Below, one piece after another: positions 31,967-43,059 of a stretch of DNA of 64,000 nucleotides. The translations under genes and the position numbers were made by a program. The stretch lies in the IMG/VR virus record IMGVR_UViG_3300027608_000014, positions 32,001 through 96,000 of that record; one strand, written 5' to 3'. Each line of letters begins with the position of its first letter. Position 1 is the stretch's first letter. The DNA comes from a virus. The notes under the pieces are model-generated. The model made no database searches. It saw only the letters and a list, made by a program, of their open reading frames with translations, and was not told the DNA's origin.

Positions 31967-32032
31967 ATGTCGCAAGACAAAAGTCTTCATCGAGCTGAAC
32001 GTCGAATCAGCGAGTACCTTCTTCGCGGCTAA
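31967..32032 (+). CDS. Possible 21-aa peptide MSQDKSLHRAERRISEYLLRG
   Basis: ATG after an AC-rich leader (CAACAC); too short to verify. Confidence 0.25.
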   Translation: MSQDKSLHRAERRISEYLLRG

Positions 32033-32132
32033 GCGATGATTTCTTTTCTCACCAACATACATCCGTAAGAAGCGGAAGTGTTGGCGTCGTTCCACTCACC
32101 TTTTTTTGTCGTTAGTGCGACGTTAAACATCC

Positions 32133-32216
32133 CGGTGCTTGGGCACTGTTAGCTGGGTTCAATTCCTAGCGAGGTCACTAAGCCCAAGGCGTTCAATCGA
32201 AAGATTGGGAATGATC
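32133..32216 (+). ncRNA. Pistol-like ribozyme 1 (variant with inserted T-loop hairpin)
   Basis: P1 CGGTG/CACTG. Loop CTTGGG pairs perfectly with CCCAAG (32183-88), preceded by CTAAG and followed by GCG. P3 TTCAATC/GATTGGG, junction AA, P2 GGTCA/TGATC. The AAA linker is replaced by a GCTGGG-TTCAATT-CCTAGC hairpin. Confidence 0.55.
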
Positions 32217-32249
32217 CAAACAAACACAGCCCCACAAGGGGAGGCGACG

Positions 32250-32495
32250 ATGGCCGACTCCATCGTTAGGTCAGAACGTGACCTATTCGAAGAAACCCTC
32301 ACTGCAGCCCTCAAGGGCCTGCGCCTCGGCAAGATGGCAAAGGTTCAGGTAATCGAGCTCCCCGAGGAGTTTGCCCTCGTAATTGACCGGAAGCACCTGC
32401 TCCGGTATCGGGGGGTGGGCCCAAAGGCCGTCGCGGAGTTTGTGGAAAACCTGAGCGAGAGATTGGATGGGTGCAAGGTGTTCTTCTCCACCTGA
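32250..32495 (+). CDS. Hypothetical protein (alternative in-frame start at 32211)
   Basis: ATG 32250 has a GGGGAGG Shine-Dalgarno. GC-rich codon usage. Confidence 0.55.
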   Translation: MADSIVRSERDLFEETLTAALKGLRLGKMAKVQVIELPEEFALVIDRKHLLRYRGVGPKAVAEFVENLSERLDGCKVFFST

Positions 32496-32520
32496 CACCA
32501 ACTGAAGGTTCGATCCCTTC

Positions 32521-32586
32521 CGTCGTTCGTGCGACGTTAAACAGCATACTAGGCACGAAGCGTCCACTCACTCGAGTGGGGATATG
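32521..32586 (+). ncRNA. Pistol self-cleaving ribozyme 2
   Basis: CGTCG-TTCGTG-CGACG (P1), TTAAACAG, P2 CATA, CTAGG, pseudoknot CACGAA, GCG, P3 TCCACTC/GAGTGGG, junction GA, P2' TATG. Matches the pistol layout element for element except GA in place of GU at the cut site. Confidence 0.8.
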
Positions 32587-33630
32587 ATCAAAATTATCAC
32601 AGAGACGCAGGCCCTCTTAATGGTCTGCACTCCCGAAGACCGGATTAAAGGTCTTGTCGTAGTTCACAGCGGCGTGTTCCACGCCGACGATGTGTTCTTC
32701 GTCGCCTTCCTCACGCTGGTCAGTCCCAGCATTCAGATCGTCCGGACTCGCAAGAGCGAGATCATTGAGGCGGCGGAGATCGTGGGCGATGTTGGTGGCA
32801 TCTGCGCCATCAATCAAAACCGCTACGACCACCACCAGAAGGGTGGGGCCGGTGCGCGCCTGAACGGAGTGCCCTTTGCGAGCTTCGGCTTGATCTGGTC
32901 GCACACAGGCTGGACGCTGGACCTGATCGGCACCGTGCTCAGGGGCGGCGGTCAGTACAGCGCCATCGCTCGGATAGTCGACGAGTCGCTGGTCCAGGCG
33001 ATCGACGCGTCGGACTGCGGCTTCACGTCGGCCGCCAGCGACCCTTTCGCGGATGCCACTCCGCGCTACTCGCTGAGTATGGCCATCAGCGCGTTCAATC
33101 CGGACTGGTCGGAGGACGACCAGGACTTCGACGCCGCCTTCGCCAGGGCCGTCGAATTCGCACAGATGATTCTCCGTCGAGAGATCATCAGCGCGGCGGG
33201 GCAGGTCGAAGCGACGTTGGTGGTCAAGCAGGCAATCACCGAGCAGACGGACGAGCCGGAGATCTTGATCCTCAATCGGTTCTGCCCTTGGCAGAATACG
33301 GTCCTGCGATGCGCCGACGTGGTGAAGTTCGTTGTCTTCCCTTCGGAGACTGGCGACTGGCGCGTGCAGGCAGTGCCCGTCTACTCTGGCTCGTACGAGA
33401 CCAGGATGTCCCTTCCGGCAACCTGGGCAGGCCTCCGCACGGCGAAACTCGCAGCGGCGGTTCGCGCCAGTGGCGGATCGATCGGGGACGACGAGGCGGC
33501 GTTCTGCCACGACAAGCTCTTCATCGGTGGGGCGACCACCTTTGAAGGAGCCATGCAGATGGCTCGCGCCGCCCTGCCAAAGGTTGCTGAGGTCAGCATC
33601 GATCTCACGGATCTCCGTGAGCGGGCCTAG
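32584..33630 (+). CDS. MYG1 family (DHH-like) 3'-5' RNA exonuclease
   Basis: HSGVFHADD, IVRTR, DVGG, YDHHQ, ASFGLIW, IDASD, FNP, R..LP..WAGL, FCH..FIG motifs. Confidence 0.9.
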   Translation: MIKIITETQALLMVCTPEDRIKGLVVVHSGVFHADDVFFVAFLTLVSPSIQIVRTRKSEIIEAAEIVGDVGGICAINQNRYDHHQKGGAGARLNGVPFASFGLIWSHTGWTLDLIGTVLRGGGQYSAIARIVDESLVQAIDASDCGFTSAASDPFADATPRYSLSMAISAFNPDWSEDDQDFDAAFARAVEFAQMILRREIISAAGQVEATLVVKQAITEQTDEPEILILNRFCPWQNTVLRCADVVKFVVFPSETGDWRVQAVPVYSGSYETRMSLPATWAGLRTAKLAAAVRASGGSIGDDEAAFCHDKLFIGGATTFEGAMQMARAALPKVAEVSIDLTDLRERA

Positions 33631-33687
33631 CAAGCCCGTGCAGTTATCTCCCGCCCCGAAAGGGGCGGGACACTTTCCGGGTTATCC

Positions 33688-34311
33688 ATGAACCCAGTAA
33701 TAAAATGGAAGTTGCCGAAAGGCATAGAAAGGCACACCATGACGTGTACCTCGTATATCCGGGTTAAGGGCCCCGTGAAAGCCCTCAAAGTCTGCAACTG
33801 GTGCGGCCCAGATGCAGAAGACCCGCAGCCGCAGCAGTTGTTCCTCGTGGCGGGGGAACAGGATTCGTTTGGGACAGAATGGCACGAGGTGTGCCAGGCC
33901 TGCATCGACGCTGGCAACGTCGCCTCCGAGACGGCGCTCGAGGTCCGAATCGCCAAGATGGTGGAGAAGCTCGGCAGTGAGCAGTCCGATACGGACTTCT
34001 ACGTCGCGGCGCTGGGCAGCCGCGACACGGTGGACGAGTGCGCCATCGTTCGGGGAGCGACGAACGCAGCCCATATGTTTGTCCGCTGGGAGGACATCGC
34101 CGCCAACAAGGGCGACTACCTCTACTCAGAGGCGCTCCGCATCGCCACTGACGACGACCGGAGCACCGTCGTCAGGTTCCGGAAGGACCGGGACGAGGAG
34201 GAGCGGCGGTACTGGGCCAAGCAGGATGAGCTGGAGGAGCTGGGGGAGCTGGAGGATCGAGATGCTCAGGATGAGCAGGATGAGCAGGATGAGGAAAGGG
34301 AGGAAGCATGA
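33688..34311 (+). CDS. Hypothetical protein (CxxC motifs, acidic tail)
   Basis: GC-rich ORF with QDE repeats. Confidence 0.6.
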   Translation: MNPVIKWKLPKGIERHTMTCTSYIRVKGPVKALKVCNWCGPDAEDPQPQQLFLVAGEQDSFGTEWHEVCQACIDAGNVASETALEVRIAKMVEKLGSEQSDTDFYVAALGSRDTVDECAIVRGATNAAHMFVRWEDIAANKGDYLYSEALRIATDDDRSTVVRFRKDRDEEERRYWAKQDELEELGELEDRDAQDEQDEQDEEREEA

Positions 34312-34559
34312 GCGCCTCCTACGCAACAGAGGACCTCCGCAAGCTCCTCGTCGCGATCCTCCGCAAGGAGCCGCGACAAGCCAAGATCGCCCTTATGGCG
34401 GTGACCCTCACAGGGGACACCCTCACCATAAAGGGCCAACTGGAAGACTGGATCCACTCCAGCCTCCAGGCCCTCAGCCAGAAGCGAGCTCCACGCCCGC
34501 CCTCGACTGAGCTCAAGAGGATCGCGAAAGCGCTCCTCGACCACCACTTCCCTGGTTAA
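34308..34559 (+). CDS. Hypothetical protein
   Basis: ATGA overlap and GGAGG Shine-Dalgarno. Confidence 0.55.
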   Translation: MSASYATEDLRKLLVAILRKEPRQAKIALMAVTLTGDTLTIKGQLEDWIHSSLQALSQKRAPRPPSTELKRIAKALLDHHFPG

Positions 34560-34574
34560 TAATGGGAAGGTTCG

Positions 34575-34656
34575 GGTCTGCCTTCGGGTGGTCGCCGTTG
34601 TTAGTGATTTATCCTTACGGATACTTCCTACAACGCGACCACACCGAAGGCAGACC
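34575..34656 (+). other. Long imperfect hairpin A (family of three)
   Basis: GGTCTGCCTTCGG...GTGGTCGC.GTTGT...ACAACGCGACCAC.CCGAAGGCAGACC. Confidence 0.8.
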
Positions 34657-34777
34657 AGGAGACATGGCGTGTTGGTTTCATATACCCTTTTTTAGGTATC
34701 AAAGACTTTCGGCACCTTGAGTGTCACGCAGTAGGCCCTCCCTTGGCCTAACCATATGGGATTAGAAAAACGTTACC

Positions 34778-35149
34778 ATGAAAATCATGAACGTCAGTGC
34801 AGTGTTGGTTGCGGTTGTAGGTCTCATGCTTGGTGCATGCGATAAAGACGGTGCGATTAGTACCTCGATTAAGAAAGAGGAGGTCCGACACAAGGAGGCA
34901 ACCTCCGCTGAGAAAGCGCGGCACCTCAAAGAGGTCAGGGACATTAAAAACGCTGAGGCGTGGCAGAGCCTGAAGCAGAAGATGGAAGCTGCCAAGGCCA
35001 CCGTTGCCGCTGATGGCGAGAGCCTGAAACAGAAGATGGAAGCGGCCAAGGCCACCGCCGCCGCTGAGGGCGAGAGCCTGAAACAGAAGATGGAAGCGGC
35101 CAAGGCCAAGGCCTCGCGCTGGAGCTTCACCCCCAGTGCCAACCCGTAA
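34778..35149 (+). CDS. Lipoprotein with 20-aa repeats
   Basis: Signal peptide ending in lipobox LGA-C; three copies of (E/Q)SLKQKMEAAKA (60-bp repeat). Confidence 0.7.
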   Translation: MKIMNVSAVLVAVVGLMLGACDKDGAISTSIKKEEVRHKEATSAEKARHLKEVRDIKNAEAWQSLKQKMEAAKATVAADGESLKQKMEAAKATAAAEGESLKQKMEAAKAKASRWSFTPSANP

Positions 35150-35151
35150 AT

Positions 35152-35313
35152 ATGGACGCCTCACCAAATAACAAGAAGGTCAACCGGATGACGGCCGAAG
35201 CTCTTCGGATCGCTCTCTCCGTCGCCAGTGAAACTGGCAACATCGACGAGAGAGGTCGCCCCATGTCGGCTAACGCTCGCCATCTAATGGCAGCGCTGGC
35301 GGCGAAGAGCTAA
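35152..35313 (+). CDS. Small hypothetical protein (53 aa, not in ORF track)
   Basis: MDASPNNKKVNRMTAEALRIALSVASETGNIDERGRPMSANARHLMAALAAKS, starting 2 nt after the upstream stop. Confidence 0.5.
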   Translation: MDASPNNKKVNRMTAEALRIALSVASETGNIDERGRPMSANARHLMAALAAKS

Positions 35314-35362
35314 GAGGCTCTCCAACAAATATCCAGTGGGCCGGTGCGCCCACTGCACTTTC

Positions 35363-35424
35363 CGTGTAGAGCGCAGCCCTTTTAAGGCTGAGGTTGCTGG
35401 TTCAAATCCAGTCCTACGCGACTA
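35363..35424 (+). tRNA. D-armless tRNA-Lys(UUU)-like RNA
   Basis: Acceptor CGTGTAG/CTACGCG, 4-nt linker AGCG with no D arm, anticodon arm CAGCC-CTTTTAA-GGCTG, T arm GCTGG-TTCAAAT-CCAGT. Ends ACTA rather than ACCA. Confidence 0.65.
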
Positions 35425-35690
35425 TTTATGCAACAGCAAATGTTGTTGCTTCTGGGACTTGGCCCAGAAGTACCGTCCCTGAAACGCAAAGTGCAACCCT
35501 GCGAGCGGATGCGCTCTCTGTTTCAGGAGATGAGGAATGCGGCTGCGAAAGCCTGAGGATCTACTGGGCATGGGAGCCCAGCCCTTTCGGGTGGTTGCGT
35601 TGTTAGTAACTTGTCGCAAGACATTTAACTACACAACGCAATCACTTGGAGGTAGACCGGCAATGAGGCGTGTATACTTACAGATTCCTT
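35425..35690 (+). ncRNA. Unassigned multi-hairpin structured RNA (includes hairpin B, 35586-35650)
   Basis: Several stems (CTTCTGGG/CCCAGAAG, CCTGAAAC/GTTTCAGG, CTGGGC/GCCCAG, an 18-bp stem with a GCAA apical loop) between tRNA genes; no convincing ORF. Confidence 0.5.
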
Positions 35691-35765
35691 TTCTTTACAG
35701 GTCAGCAACCTTTCCCCCAAAACCATCAGAAATCTAGAATCTCAAATTCTTCTGATTACTAATTT

Positions 35766-35842
35766 GCAGCCATAGCTCAGTCGGATAGAGCAGAAAACTT
35801 CTAATTTTCAGGTCGTTGGTTCGATCCCAACTGGCTGCACCA
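35766..35842 (+). tRNA. tRNA-Arg(UCU)
   Basis: Canonical cloverleaf GCAGCCA...TGGCTGC A CCA with anticodon loop CTTCTAA. Confidence 0.95.
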
Positions 35843-36020
35843 TTCTCTCAGTTCAGAGTTACGCCCTGAATGAAGCCCTCTCCGCAAGGGGCCATAAATC
35901 GTGAGATATCGCCTAAGCCCGATACTCCACGTCACTTTCGTCACTTAACGGTGACCCAAACAAAACAACAACCAAAACAACCAGTGCAACTAAAACAAAA
36001 ACAAGAAGTAAAAAGTAAGC

Positions 36021-36181
36021 AATGTAGCCCCTCAAAGAAGAGGCTTGTGGACGACTTCCAAACCGACAAGAATTCTATGAGCAAGATGGAGCTGGTCATT
36101 TCAATGACCGCCTTCTGCATGGTAACTGGACCCGTCTATTTTGTGATCTGGTACCTCAAGCATTTTTCATTCATTGAATAA
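36021..36181 (+). CDS. Small membrane protein (start uncertain, within ORF 35870-36181)
   Basis: Hydrophobic C-terminus MELVISMTAFCMVTGPVYFVIWYLK. The 5' part of the called ORF looks like AC-rich leader or structured RNA. Confidence 0.3.
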
Positions 36182-36225
36182 AGCAAATAACAGAACCAAA
36201 CAAACAACATAGGAGACTGCATAAC

Positions 36226-36567
36226 ATGTCAGAAACCAATGAAGGGTTAAAGGCGCTATCACTTTTGACCATGACGCTAAAGCCAGAAGCGACAGCGCCT
36301 AAGCCAGAAGCGACAGCGCCTAAGCCCAAGGCAAAACCCAAGGCAAAACCCAAGGCAAAACCCAAGGCAAAACCCAAGGCAAAACCCAAGGCAAAACCCA
36401 AGGCAAAACTGCCAAAGCGTAAGCTGAAGTTTAGGCCCAGGACGCTTACGGGGCGGTTGATTCGCCCAGTAAGGCGAGCCCTTTACTGGGCCCGCGAGTG
36501 CTGTAAAGCACTCGTAGCAGGATTACGCGGCAAAAAGTATCCGAAGAATCGGATGGAACTGCCGTAG
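36226..36567 (+). CDS. Basic histone-like protein with PKAK repeats
   Basis: Two KPEATAP repeats and seven PKAK repeats (12-bp CCCAAGGCAAAA, 36325-36408). AGGAG upstream. Confidence 0.6.
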   Translation: MSETNEGLKALSLLTMTLKPEATAPKPEATAPKPKAKPKAKPKAKPKAKPKAKPKAKPKAKLPKRKLKFRPRTLTGRLIRPVRRALYWARECCKALVAGLRGKKYPKNRMELP

Positions 36568-36596
36568 GCTTAGTGTCAGGAGGAGCTTTTTCGTTT

Positions 36597-36631
36597 ATGG
36601 CCACGGCTAGCTGGTAGCTAGCCGTGGTCAT
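36597..36631. other. 16-bp near-perfect inverted repeat
   Basis: ATGGCCACGGCTAGCT-ggt-AGCTAGCCGTGGTCAT with no U tract. Confidence 0.7.
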
Positions 36632-36648
36632 TGTCTTGCAATAATCAG

Positions 36649-36987
36649 ATGAATAAATACCCATGGGATTGTCTAGAATGCGTATATCTAGGACACCATA
36701 ACGGCGCAGACCTCTATGCCTGCCCCGGAAACAATAATAATCCAACAGTTACAGCGGTCTTCAGTACAGAGGTCGGTGACTACGTGCATAGCCCAGTCAA
36801 GAGGATCGACTCCTCAGGCATTCTCACTGTAGCCCTATCCTACGCTCGCCAGCAGGGGTACTTGGATAGCAGTGATAGGTCCACTGACCGCCTCGCCCCA
36901 TTGAACGATTTTGAAATTTTAGAAGCTAAGTATCCAGTGCCAGTTATCGGTGACGTTCCGGATTTGAATCCGGTAATCACCAACTAA
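36649..36987 (+). CDS. Hypothetical phage protein
   Basis: Likely ATG at 36649. Y..DC..C.YLG.....DLY.C motif of small phage proteins. Confidence 0.55.
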   Translation: MNKYPWDCLECVYLGHHNGADLYACPGNNNNPTVTAVFSTEVGDYVHSPVKRIDSSGILTVALSYARQQGYLDSSDRSTDRLAPLNDFEILEAKYPVPVIGDVPDLNPVITN

Positions 36988-37023
36988 GACAACCAAGACA
37001 ACCAAGACAACCAACCTAATCAA

Positions 37024-37683
37024 ATGAAAAAACAAATCGAAGAGAAACAACAAGAACAGGATCGTGCAATGATGGATAAAACTATCGCAACCTTCGAAAG
37101 ACAGATCGCCCACAAGAACGATCAGGGAAACTTCCTGATCCGTGATGGGGAAGTCACACTGGGGCGACTAGTCCTCGCCGCCGGTGATGCAATGCTCAAG
37201 GTTCAGCAAGAGCTGATTCGTATGTGGCAAACTCAAACTCGAGCTCAGGAGGACACCCTCCATAAATTTTTCGCTCCTCAGGCTTCGTCGCCCATTCGCC
37301 AATCAACTCGATTGGCTGATTTCATCGACGAGGATGCTGCTCGGTTCAGAGTTACAGCCAAGAACTATCGCGCTGCGGGCCAAACTGATCTGGCCAAGAA
37401 GGTTACCAATATGTGTATCGCATTTGATGCAATGGCTGCCGGTCTGCGGAAAAACTTCGACGAGTCTGGCAGCCTGTTTGCCAAGTACAATTTTGCTGTT
37501 CCGGCGACGAAGGAGAATCTTCAGAATGACCACAATCTCAGTCCTATCAGCAATGTTGATGATGATAAAGGAGAACCAGATCAGGACTCCCTGGACGCCT
37601 GGAAGGCGAGCCTCCATCAGGACGACGTGGTGCACAGTATCCGGGGACGGTTTGCTGAGCACGTAGCGTCTCAGGGCATCTAA
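37024..37683 (+). CDS. Hypothetical protein
   Basis: 219-aa ORF after an AC-rich leader with a 9-bp AAGACAACC x3 repeat. Confidence 0.6.
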   Translation: MKKQIEEKQQEQDRAMMDKTIATFERQIAHKNDQGNFLIRDGEVTLGRLVLAAGDAMLKVQQELIRMWQTQTRAQEDTLHKFFAPQASSPIRQSTRLADFIDEDAARFRVTAKNYRAAGQTDLAKKVTNMCIAFDAMAAGLRKNFDESGSLFAKYNFAVPATKENLQNDHNLSPISNVDDDKGEPDQDSLDAWKASLHQDDVVHSIRGRFAEHVASQGI

Positions 37684-37697
37684 TCTCATGCAGTCAA

Positions 37698-38010
37698 AGG
37701 CGTCAGCCTCCTGCCTGTAGGGTTTCGCCCATACGAAGGGAGGACAGAGGAATGGAGCCATCTTCACCCTCGAAGGCCCGGACGTAGGGAAGTGTCAAAG
37801 GATGGAATTTCCTAATGGCGTTACTTTCCGACTTAAAGTAAAGTCGGTGGTGGAGGGTGCAATAGCCGAAACGCAAGTGCGCCCCTGTAAATGCGAGATC
37901 GGCTCAACTTCACTGTTGGGTCGGTCTCGCGATTTAGGCTCACATCTTATGATCCAATGTAGGCTTCCAGAGCTGAGATTGGGAAGGGTAGTGGGTCCAA
38001 ATCGCGAGAC
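37698..38010 (+). ncRNA. Unassigned structured RNA region
   Basis: Multi-stem unit closed by GGCGTCA/TGGCGTT, plus long rods GCGAGATCGGCTCAAC/GTTGGGTCGGTCTCGC and GTCTCGCGATTT/AAATCGCGAGAC. Confidence 0.45.
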
Positions 38011-38137
38011 AAAAACTCGCTGCGCCTAAAAGGCGCTTGTTCTGCAAACTCAAATTGAAACTAAGAACGTGGCGCCCAATGGGTCTCTGCGACATCAAAG
38101 TAATATTCAAAGTTTTACAGAGCAAATTCAACAGCAG

Positions 38138-38358
38138 AGTCGAATAGCATAAAAGGATTCATTTAGCCGATCCCAACTCTAACATGATATGCGGGTTCAA
38201 TTCCCGCCCTCGGTGCTCAGCTCATCTGATCGTTTACTTAGTAACGATTCCTTTAAAATGGAAACAGGTGGGCTGAGCACCGAGGTAGCACAATGGTAGT
38301 GCGCGTGCCATGAAACTGAGGTTGGTTAATTTAGGGTCCGACAAAAGCCAGTTCGACT
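38138..38358 (+). ncRNA. Large YrlA-like (Y RNA) permuted tRNA mimic
   Basis: Terminal stem AGTCGAA/TTCGACT. Internal order is T arm (GCGGG-TTCAATT-CCCGC), closed 21-bp acceptor helix, TA, D arm (GCAC-AATGGTA-GTGC), which is the YrlA topology. Confidence 0.7.
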
Positions 38359-38378
38359 ATTCTATGAAATGAATAACG

Positions 38379-38415
38379 GGTGGGGTCAGCGGCAATGCTG
38401 ACCCCACCTAATTTT
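38379..38415 (+). terminator. Terminator-like hairpin after the YrlA-like RNA
   Basis: GGTGGGGTCAGC-ggcaat-GCTGACCCCACC then TAATTTT. Confidence 0.7.
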
Positions 38416-38462
38416 GTTAGTACTTTTATCAAGAAACTTAATGCAAGTTAAACGATAAAATC

Positions 38463-39218
38463 ATGAGTAAGAAAGCACACGAGCTGATCGCCGTTCAGGG
38501 TGACCTCACCGCAAAAACCAAAGCAATCCTTCTGGAGACCTTTAAGGCCTTCTCAGGAAAACCAGAGCTCTTCCTCGGCTCCTACAAAGCAACTAAGGCC
38601 TACAGTGCCGATCGATCGCAGGGAATCGACGCTGAGGAATTCAAGGATCTCACTACAACTGTGCCTGAGCGAATCGGCTATACTCTGGCTGTGGTCAAGG
38701 ACGAGATCAACGCACGCGCATCCTTGGATGCCACCAATTGCCTAGCCAAGGCAGATCTTATTATCGATGGAGTGGTACTCGCCACGGGCATTCCAGCGGT
38801 ATCACTCTTGCTCCTCGAGCAGCAGTGCGGTGCCTGGCTTGAGCTCTTCACATCAGCCCCAACCCTAGCGAACGGCGTCGCCTGGGAATTGGATCCCGAC
38901 AAGGGACCGGACATCTACGTCACTAAGCATCCTATTGTCAGAACGAAGACCGAAAAGGTTTCTTCTGCAGTAGTCTTGGCACCTGCCACTCAACAGCATC
39001 CGGCTCAGGTCAAGGAAGTCGTCAATGATGTTCCTGTGGCCAGCATCACGGAGACTCAGTGGAGCGGCATGGTCAGTTCTGCCTACAAACACGGCGGAGC
39101 GGAAAAGGTACAGAAGCTGAAGACAGCGGCTAAAGAAGCACGTCAGCGAGCCAACAATCAGGAAGTCGTCATCTCCACTCTCGGAGATGTAGTCTTTAAC
39201 TACCTGATGAAGAGCTAA
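38463..39218 (+). CDS. Conserved hypothetical protein (DUF7873-like, recalled similarity)
   Basis: K.HELIAV..D, F..KPELF.G, D.TN..AKAD..IDG, P...LL.LE, TKTEK...VL.PAT..HPAQV, WSG, A.KEARQRAN motifs. Confidence 0.6.
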   Translation: MSKKAHELIAVQGDLTAKTKAILLETFKAFSGKPELFLGSYKATKAYSADRSQGIDAEEFKDLTTTVPERIGYTLAVVKDEINARASLDATNCLAKADLIIDGVVLATGIPAVSLLLLEQQCGAWLELFTSAPTLANGVAWELDPDKGPDIYVTKHPIVRTKTEKVSSAVVLAPATQQHPAQVKEVVNDVPVASITETQWSGMVSSAYKHGGAEKVQKLKTAAKEARQRANNQEVVISTLGDVVFNYLMKS

Positions 39219-39400
39219 GAATTTTTAATTTTGTCTTGGGAGGAACAATGCGCCATCACGTTGAAAGCGCTTATTAAGCCCGGTGAAAGCCCGACCAGAT
39301 CTTCCGTTCCTCTCTTCCTCTTGCAGGAGCTATACTGACTATGGCTGGCAAATAACTAACCAACAACCTGGCGCCTCAGCAGACTCTGGGGCAAATTTTT

Positions 39401-39478
39401 CACGTAACAGCTCAACCTGGTAGAGCACCTGTATGCAGAACAGGACGTTGCTGGTTCAAATCCAGTCCTACGTGACCA
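39401..39478 (+). tRNA. Atypical tRNA with GCA anticodon (Cys-like)
   Basis: D arm GCTC/GAGC, anticodon arm CCTGT-ATGCAGA-ACAGG, T arm and encoded CCA. Non-canonical: C8, A32, A73 discriminator, A7-C mismatch, extra base between T and acceptor stems. Confidence 0.65.
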
Positions 39479-39534
39479 CTTTCAGTAAACCAGCAAAACC
39501 AACAAAAAAAAACAAAAACTAAAACAACAAAACA

Positions 39535-40056
39535 ATGACAACTACTGAGACCAATAAATACATCCGCCTGCTCCGGCGCCTGAAAACGCTGAACCATAGC
39601 TGGATCGAGGCGGCTGAGATACTGAAGAAAATTCGGGACGAGAGGCTGTACTTGGGAGAATACAGCTCCTTCAATCAGTTCTGCGCCTGCGAGCTGGGGA
39701 GAACCGACCTGAACATCCGCTATAAGATAAGGGCTGGGGAGATTGCTAAGGCAATCCACAGTGAGTTTGGTATCGCAATCTGTAACGACCATGCAGCTGC
39801 GTTAATTCCGCTAAGATCGGAGGAGCGTATCGCTGCCTTCAAGGAAGCGATGGCCTCGTCTGGGACAGGGATGCCGACGAAACAACAAATAAAAGAGGTA
39901 GTACAGCGAAGGGATGGCTCACCCCTGTTCTTGACTATCCATGCGTTGGTAAGAAAAGTGAAATGTCCAAAGGGGGTGTTTCTATCCCCAAAACGGTCCA
40001 AGCAGTTTGAGGAGGACCTGTTGTGGTTCATCCAGCAGTGGCTGGCAAATAACTAA
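39535..40056 (+). CDS. Putative DNA-binding protein
   Basis: L..IRDERLY..Y.SF..FC..ELG helical motif common in phage DNA-binding proteins. Confidence 0.55.
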   Translation: MTTTETNKYIRLLRRLKTLNHSWIEAAEILKKIRDERLYLGEYSSFNQFCACELGRTDLNIRYKIRAGEIAKAIHSEFGIAICNDHAAALIPLRSEERIAAFKEAMASSGTGMPTKQQIKEVVQRRDGSPLFLTIHALVRKVKCPKGVFLSPKRSKQFEEDLLWFIQQWLANN

Positions 40057-40117
40057 CCAACAAACCGGCACGTCAGCGGGCGTTGACCTTCGGGCGACTC
40101 TGGGGTACACTTTAATT

Positions 40118-40536
40118 GGGCCATAAAGGATTCGACTAATAGGTCAGATCTACAGCCACATGCAGAGGGACGACTTAGTTACCTCTTTAAACTCCTGAGA
40201 CAAAACTCAAACGCTAACGCGAATGACTCCGGCAACGGAAATGTGATCCAGGGCTACTTCGGTAGCTCTTCGGTCCGCACTCCGATGCTCGCTGCGGCCT
40301 AGTCCGCATCCGTCCTCTCTTCGACACCTGCTAAGGGAGAAGGACGACACCAGCAGGACGATGGTGGTGGATCCACTTTGGTACTGATCATACAGCAATG
40401 CTGCAGATCTGCGACTCGACCCACCTGGCAGCACATTTCCAGGGGACCTGTTAAGAGCGAATAATGAGATAAGCATGTAAACGCGGTAGAGTAAGACAGA
40501 TTAGGACCGGGCTCTCAGATGCCCGATGGTCCACCA
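40118..40536 (+). ncRNA. ssrA: tmRNA
   Basis: GGGCCAT/ATGGTCC acceptor with G3-U70, GGATTCGAC 5' motif and ACCA end. Tag ORF 40213-40302 reads ANANDSGNGNVIQGYFGSSSVRTPMLAAA. Confidence 0.9.
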
Positions 40537-40807
40537 TTTATACACTTGTCCGGTTAAAGTCCGGGCTACTCCGCCGCCCGCAAGGGCGACGGACACTTTC
40601 GCCTACTGGCATTCGTGTAAAACAGTAGGTTGCAACACAAGGCGACAGAAAAACTGATGTTTACATCAGCGGAAGCACAAGAAGAAATGAGACAATAGAT
40701 ACTCACTCCTGAAAGTGGCAAAGCTACGCTCTCGAGCCCTTTGCTAGCTCACGAGTTAAGATCGACCCGTGAGAGGTCCCTTAACTCATCTGACCACCTG
40801 TGTGGCT

Positions 40808-40848
40808 GTGCCATTACCCCCTAGCTAAGGGTGATGGCACTTTCTTTT
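40808..40848 (+). terminator. Intrinsic terminator ending the RNA cluster
   Basis: GTGCCATTACCC/GGGTGATGGCAC then TTTCTTTT. Confidence 0.8.
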
Positions 40849-40878
40849 AGTCAACCAACCAACAAAAAAAAATAACTA

Positions 40879-41124
40879 ATGTCAGCACTTTACTCGCAAG
40901 CACAGATTAAACTAACCGACGCTGAGATATTCGGGATCGTCATTGGTAAGCAGCGAAGGGAGATCGCTGCACTTGAGGCGCAGATAGACTCGCTCATCGC
41001 TCTCAGGAAGAGCGATCTTCTGGAGAAGAAGGAAATGGGTGAGAATATCGAACGACTGGAAGCGGAGATGATCAAGATCACCCATACCGCCCTCCCAAAC
41101 TTCAATACCGAGGAGCAGGGATAA
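40879..41124 (+). CDS. Small coiled-coil protein
   Basis: AC-rich leader; TAATG coupling to the next gene. Confidence 0.55.
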   Translation: MSALYSQAQIKLTDAEIFGIVIGKQRREIAALEAQIDSLIALRKSDLLEKKEMGENIERLEAEMIKITHTALPNFNTEEQG

Positions 41125-42071
41125 TGGGCGGAGGAGCATACAGTTCGGCCTCAAGAGGCGCAACCTATACCACCGCGAAAGCTACGGGCGCTTCGGTGTT
41201 CCGTCACATGGCGGATCTCAAGCAAGCAGGTAAGGCCCTTGTGGTTCACCCTCTGCTTGATCCCAGGCGTACCAACGAGGCGGGACGAGTTGTCCGCGAA
41301 AGCCGAGATAGTGACGAGCACCCCAACTCGTTACCAATCGCCATTATGCTCGACGTTACCGGCAGCATGTCGGATACGCTGAGAGTCTTCATTGACAAGC
41401 TACCCATCCTCATGAATCTTCTTGTTGATAAAATAGATATTGCCGATCCACACATCCTTTTTGGGTTTATTGGCGATGCCTACAGTGACAGAGTTCCACT
41501 TCAGGTGGGTAACTTTGAATCTGACAATCAGAAGATCGACGAGTGCTTCACGGCAGCAGTTCCTGAGGGCGGCGGGGGAGGACAGAACACTGAGTCTTAC
41601 GAGCTTGGTGCGTACTTCCTGGCGCGACACACCGAGCTGGACTCTCTTGATAAGCGGGGTAAGAAGGGGTACGTCTTCTTCACCGGAGACGAACTCCCCA
41701 AACAGTACGTGTCTCGAGGTCAGGTCAATTACCTGATTGGAGATACCCTGTTGGCGGATATTCCTATGGAGGACATCTTTGCCGAACTCAAAGAGAAGTT
41801 CAACGTGTTCTGGATATTTCCAGGACAAACGTCGAACTACTATGACGCCTCAATTAATAAGCGACTCAAAAGGCTGTTCGGAAAGGGCCTGATCAAGCTA
41901 CCCAATCCAAACGACATATGCGAAATGGTCGCAATGACCATCGCAGTCTGCGAGGGCGCCACTACGGAAGAGGCCAGAGCGGCATACCTCTCCTTTGGAG
42001 CTGATGCCAAAGGCGTAGCGGCGGCTGAGACAGCCCTAGCCCAAGTGATTAGGGAGCGAAGCTTCGCTTAG
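41124..42071 (+). CDS. Stand-alone VWA-domain protein
   Basis: MIDAS motif LDVTGSM, IGD...D..PLQ, GGGG...ESY, F.GDE. Confidence 0.8.
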   Translation: MGGGAYSSASRGATYTTAKATGASVFRHMADLKQAGKALVVHPLLDPRRTNEAGRVVRESRDSDEHPNSLPIAIMLDVTGSMSDTLRVFIDKLPILMNLLVDKIDIADPHILFGFIGDAYSDRVPLQVGNFESDNQKIDECFTAAVPEGGGGGQNTESYELGAYFLARHTELDSLDKRGKKGYVFFTGDELPKQYVSRGQVNYLIGDTLLADIPMEDIFAELKEKFNVFWIFPGQTSNYYDASINKRLKRLFGKGLIKLPNPNDICEMVAMTIAVCEGATTEEARAAYLSFGADAKGVAAAETALAQVIRERSFA

Positions 42072-42115
42072 CAATCTGGACTCCCTCCTTAGACAGGGGG
42101 GGGTCCAGATACTTT

Positions 42116-42310
42116 ATGAACAAAACACTATCACTTCTACTGCTTCTCTCACTAACGTCCTGTAGCAAGATCGCTGCAGCACAGCCCACTTTTGCAGTGG
42201 TGATTGCTCAGGGCATTACGCTCTGTGTAATATTATTACTGTCACGTCCTAAAAAAAAAAAAGAATCGAATTGTCACATCAAGCAGCCCAACAACCAATA
42301 CTTACAATGA
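42116..42310 (+). CDS. Small putative lipoprotein/membrane protein
   Basis: MNKTLSLLLLLSLTS-C lipobox-like leader plus a second hydrophobic segment. Confidence 0.45.
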   Translation: MNKTLSLLLLLSLTSCSKIAAAQPTFAVVIAQGITLCVILLLSRPKKKKESNCHIKQPNNQYLQ

Positions 42311-42558
42311 AATATACTTTAATTCACAACGGACAGCGCTACCTGATCCTAATGCAAGATGTCTACGGCATCAAAGGTCTATACAGGAGCAGAAGCTTTA
42401 TTGCGGAGATCCTGTCCAGGTTTACGCCATTCTATCAGCTGAATCCTGTCTGGGGAACCAGGTACAGGTGGCTCGCCCAACATCGGCTGGAGTTCCTGCG
42501 TAACAGTAACAGAGAGAACTCGATCTGGGATCGCACCGCTCGAAAGGAGAGAGCTTGA
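42307..42558 (+). CDS. Hypothetical protein
   Basis: Likely ATG at 42307 overlapping the upstream stop (ATGA). Confidence 0.45.
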   Translation: MKYTLIHNGQRYLILMQDVYGIKGLYRSRSFIAEILSRFTPFYQLNPVWGTRYRWLAQHRLEFLRNSNRENSIWDRTARKERA

Positions 42559-42773
42559 CCACCTTGGATGTGGTTACGGCACTGAAGAGGGGAAAACCGG
42601 GAGGCCTCTCATCTGTGGCAGAACTGCGGTGGTGCAAGCCACTAGTGTTCGCAAAGATCGATCCCGAAATCCAGATCGTAGCAAACCGGTACATCAAGAA
42701 TCGCACCAGTGATGGCGCAGGATGGTCCGTCCTAAAGAACTGGCTCTATAAAAACCCACCAGAGGTAACATGA
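42555..42773 (+). CDS. Hypothetical protein
   Basis: TTGA overlap with AGGAG upstream. Confidence 0.45.
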   Translation: MTTLDVVTALKRGKPGGLSSVAELRWCKPLVFAKIDPEIQIVANRYIKNRTSDGAGWSVLKNWLYKNPPEVT

Positions 42774-42852
42774 AAACACATGTCACAAGCAGACAATTGA
42801 GTGTGTCTGCTCCACACTTGCATCGCTCAACATATAGCAGGCCGTAGGGCCT

Positions 42853-42957
42853 GCTCCCTCGCCAACTATCCCATGGATGGTTGTGCTCGTTAGTTCAAAG
42901 AGATTTATTTTCTACGAATTAGCAGCACAACCATACATGGGTAGTTGGCGAAGGAGC
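42853..42957 (+). other. Long imperfect hairpin C upstream of nrdJ
   Basis: GCTCC.TCGCCAACTATCCCATG.ATGGTTGTGCT...AGCACAACCAT.CATGGGTAGTTGGCGA.GGAGC. Confidence 0.8.
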
Positions 42958-43059
42958 GCTGGGTTTAGTAGATACAAGTTCTTTTTCTTTAGCTATTAGA
43001 ATTTTCTAACCAATCCAGCTCGACTGGACAAGAGTTTCGGTGGAGACTATCCGCCCATT

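Follow-up and report, generated by a model that had tools for sequence, protein, structure and literature searches.

An uncultured freshwater phage encodes, beside a gene of the DUF7873 protein family, an RNA of about 390 nt (~38021-38410, plus strand) that matches a family of structured RNAs found next to DUF7873 genes in phages and bacteria. Positions are those of the window, the whole 64-kb stretch of DNA analysed, which comes from a viral record of 148.9 kb (~75% complete). Our best explanation is that this element belongs to a widespread, DUF7873-coupled family of non-coding RNAs of the YrlA type and is putatively bound by DUF7873 as a particle; we put the chances of this reading at about even. 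As a narrower statement, gene neighborhoods give good support to the view that the RNA and DUF7873 are functional partners.

A sequence-only reading of the window had described a structured non-coding block of 770 nt with several folded domains, followed by a DUF7873-like gene. The description of the block as non-coding and folded was borne out. No credible gene is present in 37684-38462, where the open reading frames reach just 57 to 75 aa and have no Pfam matches, and independent gene callers placed nothing in the equivalent stretch of near-identical contigs. The plus strand folds at -303.9 kcal/mol versus -227 kcal/mol for shuffled sequences (z -13.2; minus strand, z -6.6), and each half is structured separately (z -6.0 for 37684-38036 and z -9.0 for 38037-38415). 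The block fits no Rfam family at the gathering cut-off or at E<=10, where only hairpin noise was returned; specifically, the GOLLD, ROOL, and alpha, beta, and cyano tmRNA models do not match it. The RNA has no BLAST matches among 50,697 phage records, and a convincing promoter was not found on the plus strand of the block. The features of the block and the adjoining gene are as follows.

37684-38020, plus strand: 5' structured extension with strong hairpins, one of 16 bp at ~37893-37935
38021-38076, plus strand: hexamer-track region, from direct sequence reading, with a small hairpin at 38021-38035
38138-38190, plus strand: 5' strand of the rod, anticodon-stem equivalent, and variable loop, from constrained and free folds and model alignment
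38191-38302, plus strand: permuted tRNA-like head, from the covariance model (46.9 bits)
38191-38207, plus strand: T-arm
38208-38228 paired with 38265-38285, plus strand: closed acceptor helix, 21 bp
38208-38214, plus strand: 3' acceptor strand
38215-38278, plus strand: extension of the acceptor helix and two capping hairpins
38279-38285, plus strand: 5' acceptor strand
38286-38287, plus strand: U8-A9
38288-38302, plus strand: D-arm
38303-38377, plus strand: 3' strand of the rod, with an internal-loop motif (38309-38321) and a GAAA-containing linker (38365-38372)
38378-38416, plus strand: terminal G+C-rich hairpin of 13-14 bp (stem-loop 38378-38409) and U-run, from a terminator scan
38463-39218, plus strand: DUF7873 gene, 251 aa (Pfam PF25283, E 2e-57)

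The earlier proposal that the whole 770-nt block is the RNA of the system holds in part. Only ~38021-38410 matches the DUF7873-linked family, while the 5' extension has no relatives in Rfam (E<=10), in the phage BLAST search, or in L008, and these ~340 nt may be lineage-specific or a distinct RNA. L008 and L099 (a 993-nt contig) are the close relatives of the window locus; a metagenome scan for other members of the lineage returned only near-identical copies and distant loci. The RNA region is under constraint, with strain variation below that of its flanks: a near-identical contig has 3 mismatches in 779 nt of the RNA region versus ~31 differences in 2,657 nt of flanking sequence. Two of the four strain SNPs lie inside predicted helices and pairing is retained in both, at 37984 (U-A to U.G) and at 38271, where G>A replaces a G.U pair in the acceptor extension by A-U. 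The locus is a tRNA/tmRNA island that also contains two further, defective tRNA-like elements.

Within the block, 38181-38309 forms a single circularly permuted tRNA-like domain, which substantiates the tRNA mimic of the sequence-only reading. The head runs from the T-arm through an acceptor-like stem to the D-arm and ends at the anticodon-stem position, and its sequence contains the elbow-forming residues U8, A14, G18-G19, A21, R15-Y48, and the T-loop. A pattern scan of both strands of the window finds the permuted head once, and the covariance model has one match in the whole record (E 1e-10). Two heads are frequent in cellular loci and occur in few phage loci; here a record search with filters off did not recover a second tandem head, the runner-up scoring 2.9 bits. 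Most relatives encode N-CCA, and the DUF7873-linked RNAs mostly have exactly 7 acceptor pairs, N-CCA, and a spacer, as does L008, which retains G-CCA. Where the relatives carry N-C-C-A, the window acceptor reads G-C-U-C, and its helix is continuous over 21 bp. The 3' end of the head lies 161 nt from the start of DUF7873. The window is an atypical member of the family, with the RNA upstream of the gene, one head, and a closed, CCA-less acceptor. Since the head is closed and lacks CCA, an RNase P-type cut is unlikely in this phage, and because the window has neither an encoded CCA nor a clear repeat track nor a second head, the traits of the family may be only partly valid here.

The sequences on either side of the head pair into a long rod, which is also present in 11 other family members. 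In constrained and free folds alike, 38138-38145 pairs with 38351-38358, and the rod reaches the head, where the anticodon-stem equivalent has 4 bp (38183-38186) and the variable loop 4 nt (38187-38190). The 3' strand of the rod is conserved in L099, whose DUF7873 protein is 74% identical, and recognizable in L008 (56%). An A/C-rich run at 38311, which had been pointed out from the sequence, indeed falls within a family-enriched motif located 13-18 nt 3' of the D-arm in 26 of 65 family loci versus 12.5% of controls. A local Ro-type bulged hairpin at 38333-38358 was rejected as a candidate, since all folds pair this segment long-range with 38138-38160.

The other A/C-rich, hexamer-like run that had been reported lies 5' of the rod. 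The family pattern here is a covarying closing helix that surrounds tandem hexamers, and at the equivalent position U-N-A runs of at least four units are 15-fold enriched (1.48/kb versus 0.10/kb). In the window, GGCGC at 38031-38035 has an alternative pairing with 38072-38076 that would enclose six-base repeats at 38044-38067, and we tentatively match 38021-38076 to the 5' helix of the family around its repeat track. U-N-A does recur with a six-base period, at 38050, 38056, and 38062 (three units, 38050-38064). However, three-unit runs of this kind occur at chance level in the window (~27 per strand), so the periodicity noted earlier is meaningful only through the family.

The hairpin at 38378-38416 is an intrinsic terminator and, at the same time, an element conserved in the family. 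Its apical loop, GGCAAU, is identical in the window, L099, and L008, and the stems differ by compensatory changes. The loop fits the family type purine-GG-N-W-A-U, and a similar hairpin with a related loop is found in 45 of 65 family loci versus 26 of 256 control windows. With a strong terminator between the RNA and DUF7873, co-transcription of the two is not obvious. Structured RNA, terminator, and gene in this order could also be read as a cis-acting leader or attenuator of DUF7873 in this phage, given that the terminator hairpin lies 50-90 nt 5' of the DUF7873 start in the window, L099, and L008. We consider this very unlikely. Gene order is reversed in those three loci, all of which retain the adjacency; the RNA is 3' of the gene, and so is no leader, in the cellular loci as well as in 68 of 70 other loci from phages, and a plain attenuator does not need a conserved apical loop.

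The linkage of RNA and gene was assessed in loci picked by DUF7873 protein similarity alone, with the phage counts limited to the 80 viral loci, out of 190, that matched best. Beside DUF7873, the gene strand was searched with the permuted-domain covariance model at a threshold of >=39 bits. Of 70 phage loci, 68 have a match of at least 39 bits that adjoins DUF7873 on the same strand, and a same-strand permuted domain is found beside the gene in 30 to 35 of 40 loci from bacteria and metagenome-assembled genomes (30 at >=39 bits). On the gene strand 79 of 85 loci match, and on the opposite strand none do. These counts give strong support to the earlier, unverified suggestion that the protein family co-occurs with tRNA-like RNAs, and the neighboring RNA is conserved among homologous genes from phages, cyanobacteria, myxobacteria, and other bacteria. 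Among 36 relatives, 20 of 21 pairs vary on both sides, and the covariation score is 0.763, compared with 0.221 for shuffled sequences and <=0.226 with slid partners; because the T, acceptor, and D pairing was imposed by selection, only the variety of pair types is evidential. Adjacency across phage and cellular loci that survives reversal of gene order is the ground on which the functional partnership of RNA and protein has good support. The same data bear on the idea that the element is functionless, the remains of tRNA genes that were duplicated in tandem and are decaying. Defective tRNA-like neighbors in the island would suit this idea, and junctions of tandem tRNAs do match the covariance model, weakly, at 20 to 35 bits. 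However, the acceptor strands are complementary and covary across relatives, a conserved rod substitutes for the anticodon stem, phages, cyanobacteria, and myxobacteria alike retain the element next to the same protein family, and it varies less within the population than its flanks, all of which makes decay hardly credible.

The product of the adjoining gene, previously called DUF7873-like, is a clear member of that family, matching PF25283 over residues 3-250 with 195 bits (cut-off, 27), and 135 homologues were collected. We found no paper that names DUF7873, and PHROGs and PADLOC gave no match. The AF2 model (pLDDT 92) has no Foldseek matches in the PDB at E<=0.001, and a sequence profile search of the PDB was also negative. 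The best VIA-align match is 3kdq_A (Z 9.6, rmsd 7.2 A over 148 residues), a protein whose function is likewise unknown, and the remainder are generic helical matches; neither this search nor Foldseek against the PDB found a recognizable RNA-binding fold or domain. ESM Atlas matches are limited to DUF7873 itself and unnamed phage clusters. A predicted homodimer scores 0.70, versus 0.02 for the best of three controls, with >=98% of contacts shared among runs and a partner pLDDT of >=87. This mark is reached by 20 of 30 solved proteins that pair with the same chain and by 1 of 23 single-chain proteins, and the prediction supports, rather than shows, binding of DUF7873 as two copies.

Adjacency demonstrates a functional link, not binding, and RNA and protein might share a pathway while forming no stable particle: DUF7873 could process or modify the RNA or be regulated by it, or the RNA could be a substrate mimic or decoy. 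The conserved polar residues of DUF7873 (H6, E7, E25, N92, H179, Q182, R227, R229, and N231) could equally be an active site, and the protein is near neutral, not basic (pI 6.45). However, no catalytic fold or family is recognized in it, and the analogy with Ro60, which in the same genomes is encoded next to its Y RNAs, favors a binding partner. We therefore regard a shared pathway of this type as rather unlikely, although it deserves some weight.

In the particle that we favor, the 5' and 3' parts of the RNA would form the rod, the tip of which would fold as a tRNA that has no anticodon loop. DUF7873, probably homodimeric, would bind this RNA in a particle analogous to Ro60-Y RNA, most likely at the repeat track or at the conserved terminal-loop hairpin. 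Through its tRNA-shaped head, the particle could then be offered to factors that handle tRNAs, for example RNase P, the CCA-adding enzyme, modification enzymes, or nucleases. Since the module is located in phage tRNA/tmRNA islands and mobile elements, a role in RNA surveillance or repair, or in shielding the translation apparatus during infection, would be expected. In this phage the closed, CCA-less head would mimic a tRNA in shape alone and would not give a processed RNA of two pieces. A fuller version of this model, to which we give somewhat less than an even chance, has DUF7873 dimers and the RNA as a second, Ro60-independent Y-RNA-like particle of mainly phages and mobile elements, with the head engaging host machinery that handles or attacks tRNAs and the repeat track and terminal loop serving as docking sites.

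To our knowledge, Y RNAs are known solely as partners of Ro60. If the model is true, tRNA-shaped scaffold RNAs are a more general device than has been thought, the conserved orphan family DUF7873 gains a function, and a new player enters the contest between phages and hosts over tRNAs and translation. Cultivable carriers exist among phages of Rhizobium, Klebsiella, and Vibrio, such as RHph_TM16 and RHph_Y65, KpLz-2_45, and K479, respectively, and among Nostoc strains, and the natural variants that the window brings out (closed versus CCA head, one versus two heads, and reversed order) mark dispensable features.

Among known systems, the two-piece tmRNAs of alpha- and betaproteobacteria and cyanobacteria resemble the DUF7873-linked RNAs in that the T-arm and 3' acceptor strand precede the 5' acceptor strand and a long helix takes the place of the anticodon stem. 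In line with this gene order and with the N-CCA of most relatives, the element could be a tagging RNA whose six-base repeats form a short frame, and one repeat frame does alternate hydrophobic and polar codons and begins with a G-N-N codon. We find this barely plausible. The G3.U70 alanine identity pair is present in none of the members examined (position 3-70 of the window acceptor is C-G), the ends of the frame are unrelated among the close relatives L067, L087, L090, and L091, and the family differs from two-piece tmRNA in having no conserved tag frame or pseudoknot series and in possessing a full D-arm. The window copy, with its closed acceptor, is not called by ARAGORN or the Rfam tmRNA models, and a standard tmRNA is already encoded by the same phage, at 40118-40536. 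Another tRNA-like RNA partnered by a protein other than Ro60 is the one associated with Band-7 proteins. That RNA reportedly resembles an authentic, unpermuted tRNA and occurs in RNA-repair contexts, a description that sets it apart from the present case, and Pfam shows no Band-7 match in DUF7873.

The likeness is greatest to YrlA RNAs, which are bound by Ro60 and modified by TruB and DusA. In YrlA (RF02553), the 5' and 3' parts also pair into a stem with a tRNA-shaped far end (T-arm, acceptor-like, and D-arm), the T-arm (model positions 31-47) precedes the D-arm (64-81), and the RNA shares its strand with an adjoining dedicated protein gene, a Ro60/TROVE gene that would be expected within ~4 kb of a YrlA RNA. 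Closed (Salmonella-like) and 7-bp, CCA-bearing (M. smegmatis-like) acceptors both exist among YrlA RNAs (PMC4201824; bioRxiv 10.1101/312249), as they do among the DUF7873-linked RNAs. In M. smegmatis, YrlA with its 7-bp acceptor is cleaved by RNase P and gains CCA (PMC4201824); most DUF7873-linked RNAs share this layout, which would permit an RNase P cut and a CCA end, whereas in the window RNA CCA is replaced and the helix is 21 bp long. The relatives match RF02553 over its full length but below threshold (33-47 bits, E 2e-7 to 2e-3), and the window gives only fragments of 9.7-12.7 bits (gathering threshold, 69 bits).

With a topology equal to that of YrlA (PMC4201824), the element could be an ordinary Y RNA for a host Ro60 or an unsampled phage Ro60, DUF7873 being a mere frequent neighbor in tRNA islands. 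Consistent with this, TROVE and DUF7873 genes lie 5.5 kb apart in the Rhizobium phage Y65, and the record analyzed, which has no TROVE match in its 148.9 kb, is ~75% complete, so that Ro60 elsewhere in the phage is possible. However, TROVE is also missing from 4 of 5 other DUF7873 phage records, from 48 of a further 50 (among them 18 of the 19 with >=90% completeness), and from two whole bacterial genomes that bear the RNA-DUF7873 pair, and Ro60 is present in only ~5% of bacteria (PMC4201824). Three cyanobacterial genomes have Ro60 with its own Y RNAs at one locus and DUF7873 with the tRNA-mimic RNA at another; the covariance model also detects the canonical Y RNAs immediately 5' of Ro60 in these genomes. 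The putative Ro60 contact GNCGAAN0-1G, which YrlA RNAs have near the 5' end, is absent from 37684-38462 and is not enriched in the 5' strands of the family (5 of 65 versus 6.2% of control windows). Together these observations make an ordinary YrlA RNA very unlikely.

The DUF7873-linked RNAs differ from YrlA in their protein neighbor, in the lack of Ro60 in most carriers, in the size of the family core (~390 nt in the window versus 114 positions in the Rfam model), and in two elements of their own, the track of six-base repeats and the hairpin with the conserved terminal loop. The word undescribed, used in the sequence-only reading for the ribonucleoprotein, fits a family that is unnamed, although it overstates the novelty of an RNA related to YrlA-type Y RNAs. 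The YrlA class is the closest known relative, and the DUF7873-linked RNA is not wholly new in kind; its pairing with DUF7873 in phages and bacteria is probably an undescribed RNA-protein unit, a Ro60-free relative of the Y RNAs.

A 219-aa ORF stops at 37683 and the next gene starts at 38463; no credible coding sequence lies between them, as the sequence-only reading had it. The intervening block (37684-38462) folds with a z-score of -13.2 on the + strand and -6.6 on the - strand, and each half folds independently, bearing out the folded domains described there. The proposed tRNA mimic is a permuted head in which the T-arm and the 3' acceptor strand come first. This strand pairs with the 5' acceptor strand over a 50-nt capped insert, and U8-A9 and a canonical D-arm follow, with every tRNA-elbow residue present. 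A strict pattern for this layout has one match in the 64-kb window, both strands scanned. The assignment of the adjoining gene to DUF7873 (Pfam PF25283) was likewise upheld.

Features of the RNA block and its neighbouring gene
38191-38207, + strand: T-arm, read from the sequence, with the 3' acceptor strand immediately after
38378-38416, + strand: terminal 13-14-bp hairpin plus U-run, at the 3' end of the block
38463-39218, + strand: DUF7873 gene, E 2e-57

The sequence-only reading suggested that DUF7873 co-occurs with tRNA-like RNAs, and the flanks of homologous genes agree. Protein similarity was the sole criterion for gathering loci: 75 phage records (tblastn), the best-matching 80 of 190 viral loci in IMG/VR, and 41 from bacterial and archaeal assemblies, with L099 (74% identity) and L008 (56% identity), which are nearest to the window protein, added to these. 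The first four annotated phages have an unannotated gap adjoining DUF7873, within or beside tRNA arrays, and all four gaps contain a permuted tRNA-like element. A pattern scan was positive on the gene strand in 79 of 85 loci and on the opposite strand in none. A covariance model made from 36 permuted elements gives a score of 39 bits or more adjacent to the gene in 68 of 70 non-redundant phage loci (from the best-matching viral loci); of the other two, one is truncated and one reaches 34 bits. Among 40 cellular loci, where two tandem heads are usual, 30 reach 39 bits or more and 35 reach 33 bits or more. By the same model, the element of the window has 46.9 bits and that of L008 52.8, compared with 20-35 bits for tandem-tRNA junctions. 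Two-sided changes occur in the acceptor, T, D, and anticodon-stem helices alike; since acceptor, T, and D pairing was imposed by element selection, only the diversity of pair types counts as evidence for these three. A functional tie between this RNA family and DUF7873 is very likely. That the block is instead a cis leader, a tmRNA-like tagger, or a tRNA relic is in each case contradicted by at least one test in this analysis.

A typical family RNA begins shortly past the DUF7873 stop codon, with a short helix of covarying pairs around tandem six-base repeats (U-N-A every six bases; runs of at least four are enriched 15-fold). Sequence ahead of the T-arm pairs with sequence after the D-arm in a long rod; within it are the counterpart of an anticodon stem (4-5 bp) and a normal variable loop. 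In the head, the acceptor comprises exactly seven pairs, with N-CCA and a 9-95-nt spacer after them. A G+C-rich terminal hairpin with a conserved apical loop is present in 45 of 65 loci versus 26 of 256 controls. Several phages have a bona fide tRNA 3' of the permuted head; those listed below carry anticodons UCU and UGU and, as they lie between the head and the conserved terminal hairpin, probably share its transcript.

tRNAs between permuted head and terminal hairpin, all above the Rfam threshold
L067, 3516-3588
L051, 3576-3644
L001, 5204-5274

The window copy has the family rod (38138-38190 paired with 38303-38358), head, post-D-arm internal-loop motif, and terminal hairpin, whose loop is identical in the window, L099, and L008 and whose stem differs among them by compensatory changes. 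Four SNPs in near-identical environmental contigs agree with the fold (two in loops, one G.U to A-U, one U-A to U.G), and polymorphism is lower in the RNA than in its flanks. Positions 38021-38410 are almost certainly a member of the family. The copy is atypical in gene order, with the RNA upstream of DUF7873 (also in L099 and L008), in having one head only, and in the replacement of CCA and the extension of the acceptor as a 21-bp helix. The suggested hexamer runs hold for the family; the three units in the window are at chance level by themselves. Of the proposed 770-nt RNA, it is the core that matches the family. The roughly 340 structured nucleotides 5' of it (37684-38020; z -6) have no relative in any search, match nothing in Rfam, lack a second tRNA-like head, and may be a separate RNA terminating at a small terminator-like hairpin (38022-38036).

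The DUF7873 model is confident (pLDDT 92), with long helices and two sheets, and had no informative match in the PDB or Atlas; PHROGs and PADLOC returned nothing. The protein is near neutral (pI 6.45). A predicted homodimer scored 0.70 (best of three controls, 0.02), a mark that, among proteins of solved structure, 20 of 30 one-chain pairs and 1 of 23 single chains attain. At least 98% of contacts are shared between runs, and the partner pLDDT is 87 or higher. The modelling supports, but does not establish, pairing of two DUF7873 copies; the two heads usual in the RNAs of cellular loci would suit a dimer. By analogy with Ro60-Y RNA, the simplest reading is that DUF7873 and the tRNA-mimic RNA would form a stable particle, to which we give about an even chance; alternatively, the two could act in a shared pathway without binding. 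In a single case (L136, a Trueperaceae MAG; 46-1308, +), an HD phosphohydrolase fused to a P-loop kinase (AAA_33) is encoded just upstream of DUF7873, a pair typical of RNA end-healing enzymes. Other neighbours are anecdotal (a serine recombinase, a phage protein).

Nearly all genes are on the + strand, and the block lies in an RNA-rich island (32000-43000) that includes a tRNA-Arg.

Other elements between 32000 and 43000
32521-32586, + strand: pistol ribozyme, 49 bits against a threshold of 34.5
34565-34666, + strand: long near-perfect hairpin (~100 nt), weak microRNA-model match, 28.6 bits
35355-35425, + strand: defective tRNA-like element, anticodon arm UUU, without 5' acceptor strand
39400-39478, + strand: defective tRNA-like element with D, anticodon (GCA), and T arms, perfect 6-7-bp acceptor, and CCA
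40118-40536, + strand: standard one-piece tmRNA, Rfam 66 bits against a threshold of 47
42853-42957, - strand: long near-perfect hairpin (~100 nt), weak microRNA-model match, 34.2 bits

The start of a 348-aa ORF adjoins the ribozyme. The tmRNA has an unusually long tag frame (about 29 codons) with Ala as first codon and a hydrophobic, Ala-rich tail at its end, and the A/C-rich stretch ahead of its resume codon looks like the repeat track of the DUF7873-linked RNAs. The two defective elements are paralogous, with identical T-arm and 3' strand. The GCA element, 180 nt past the DUF7873 stop, occupies the site of the permuted RNA in most relatives; ARAGORN rejects it owing to one surplus base ahead of the D-stem and two more that separate T-stem and acceptor.

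Our literature search found no paper naming DUF7873 or describing a phage RNA with this kind of permuted tRNA-like fold. A Ro-independent tRNA-like RNA was reportedly put forward in 2016. The nearest known system is YrlA, a Y RNA class (Rfam RF02553) whose hallmark is the order T-arm, acceptor, D-arm, with both RNA ends at the anticodon position, and the family RNA shares this layout. In Mycobacterium smegmatis YrlA, the acceptor consists of seven pairs; RNase P cleaves this RNA, and CCA is added to it (PMC4201824). The Rfam YrlA model aligns to several family members over its full length at sub-threshold scores (33-47 bits versus 69), with no full-length match on the window copy. However, the link to Ro60 that defines YrlA is not shared by the DUF7873-linked RNAs. 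No TROVE gene is present in the window record (an uncultured virus; 148.9 kb, about 75% complete), and one was found in 1 of 5 further records (Rhizobium phage Y65 only) and in 2 of 50 further DUF7873 phage records (1 of 19 among those at least 90% complete). The window RNA lacks the putative Ro60-contact motif, which shows no enrichment in the family either. Partnership of the RNA with a host Ro60 is also contradicted by at least one test. Rhizobium phage RHph_Y65 (L002) is among the few phages with both proteins, its TROVE/Ro60-like gene (139762-140505) lying about 5.5 kb downstream of DUF7873 in the same tRNA array.

Three cyanobacterial genomes carry the most weight here; they have three tandem permuted modules, canonical Y RNAs, directly upstream of the Ro60 gene.

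Ro60/TROVE with three tandem modules
G052 (Nostoc carneum), 1310888-1312662
G053 (Calothrix brevissima), 5310301-5312703
G055 (Cylindrospermum sp.), 2972406-2974138

The same three genomes also encode DUF7873 at a distant locus, immediately followed by one or two modules of its own; in two other genomes, the DUF7873 pair is the only one. The separate loci in the three cyanobacteria indicate that Ro60 and DUF7873 each keep their own tRNA-mimic RNA.
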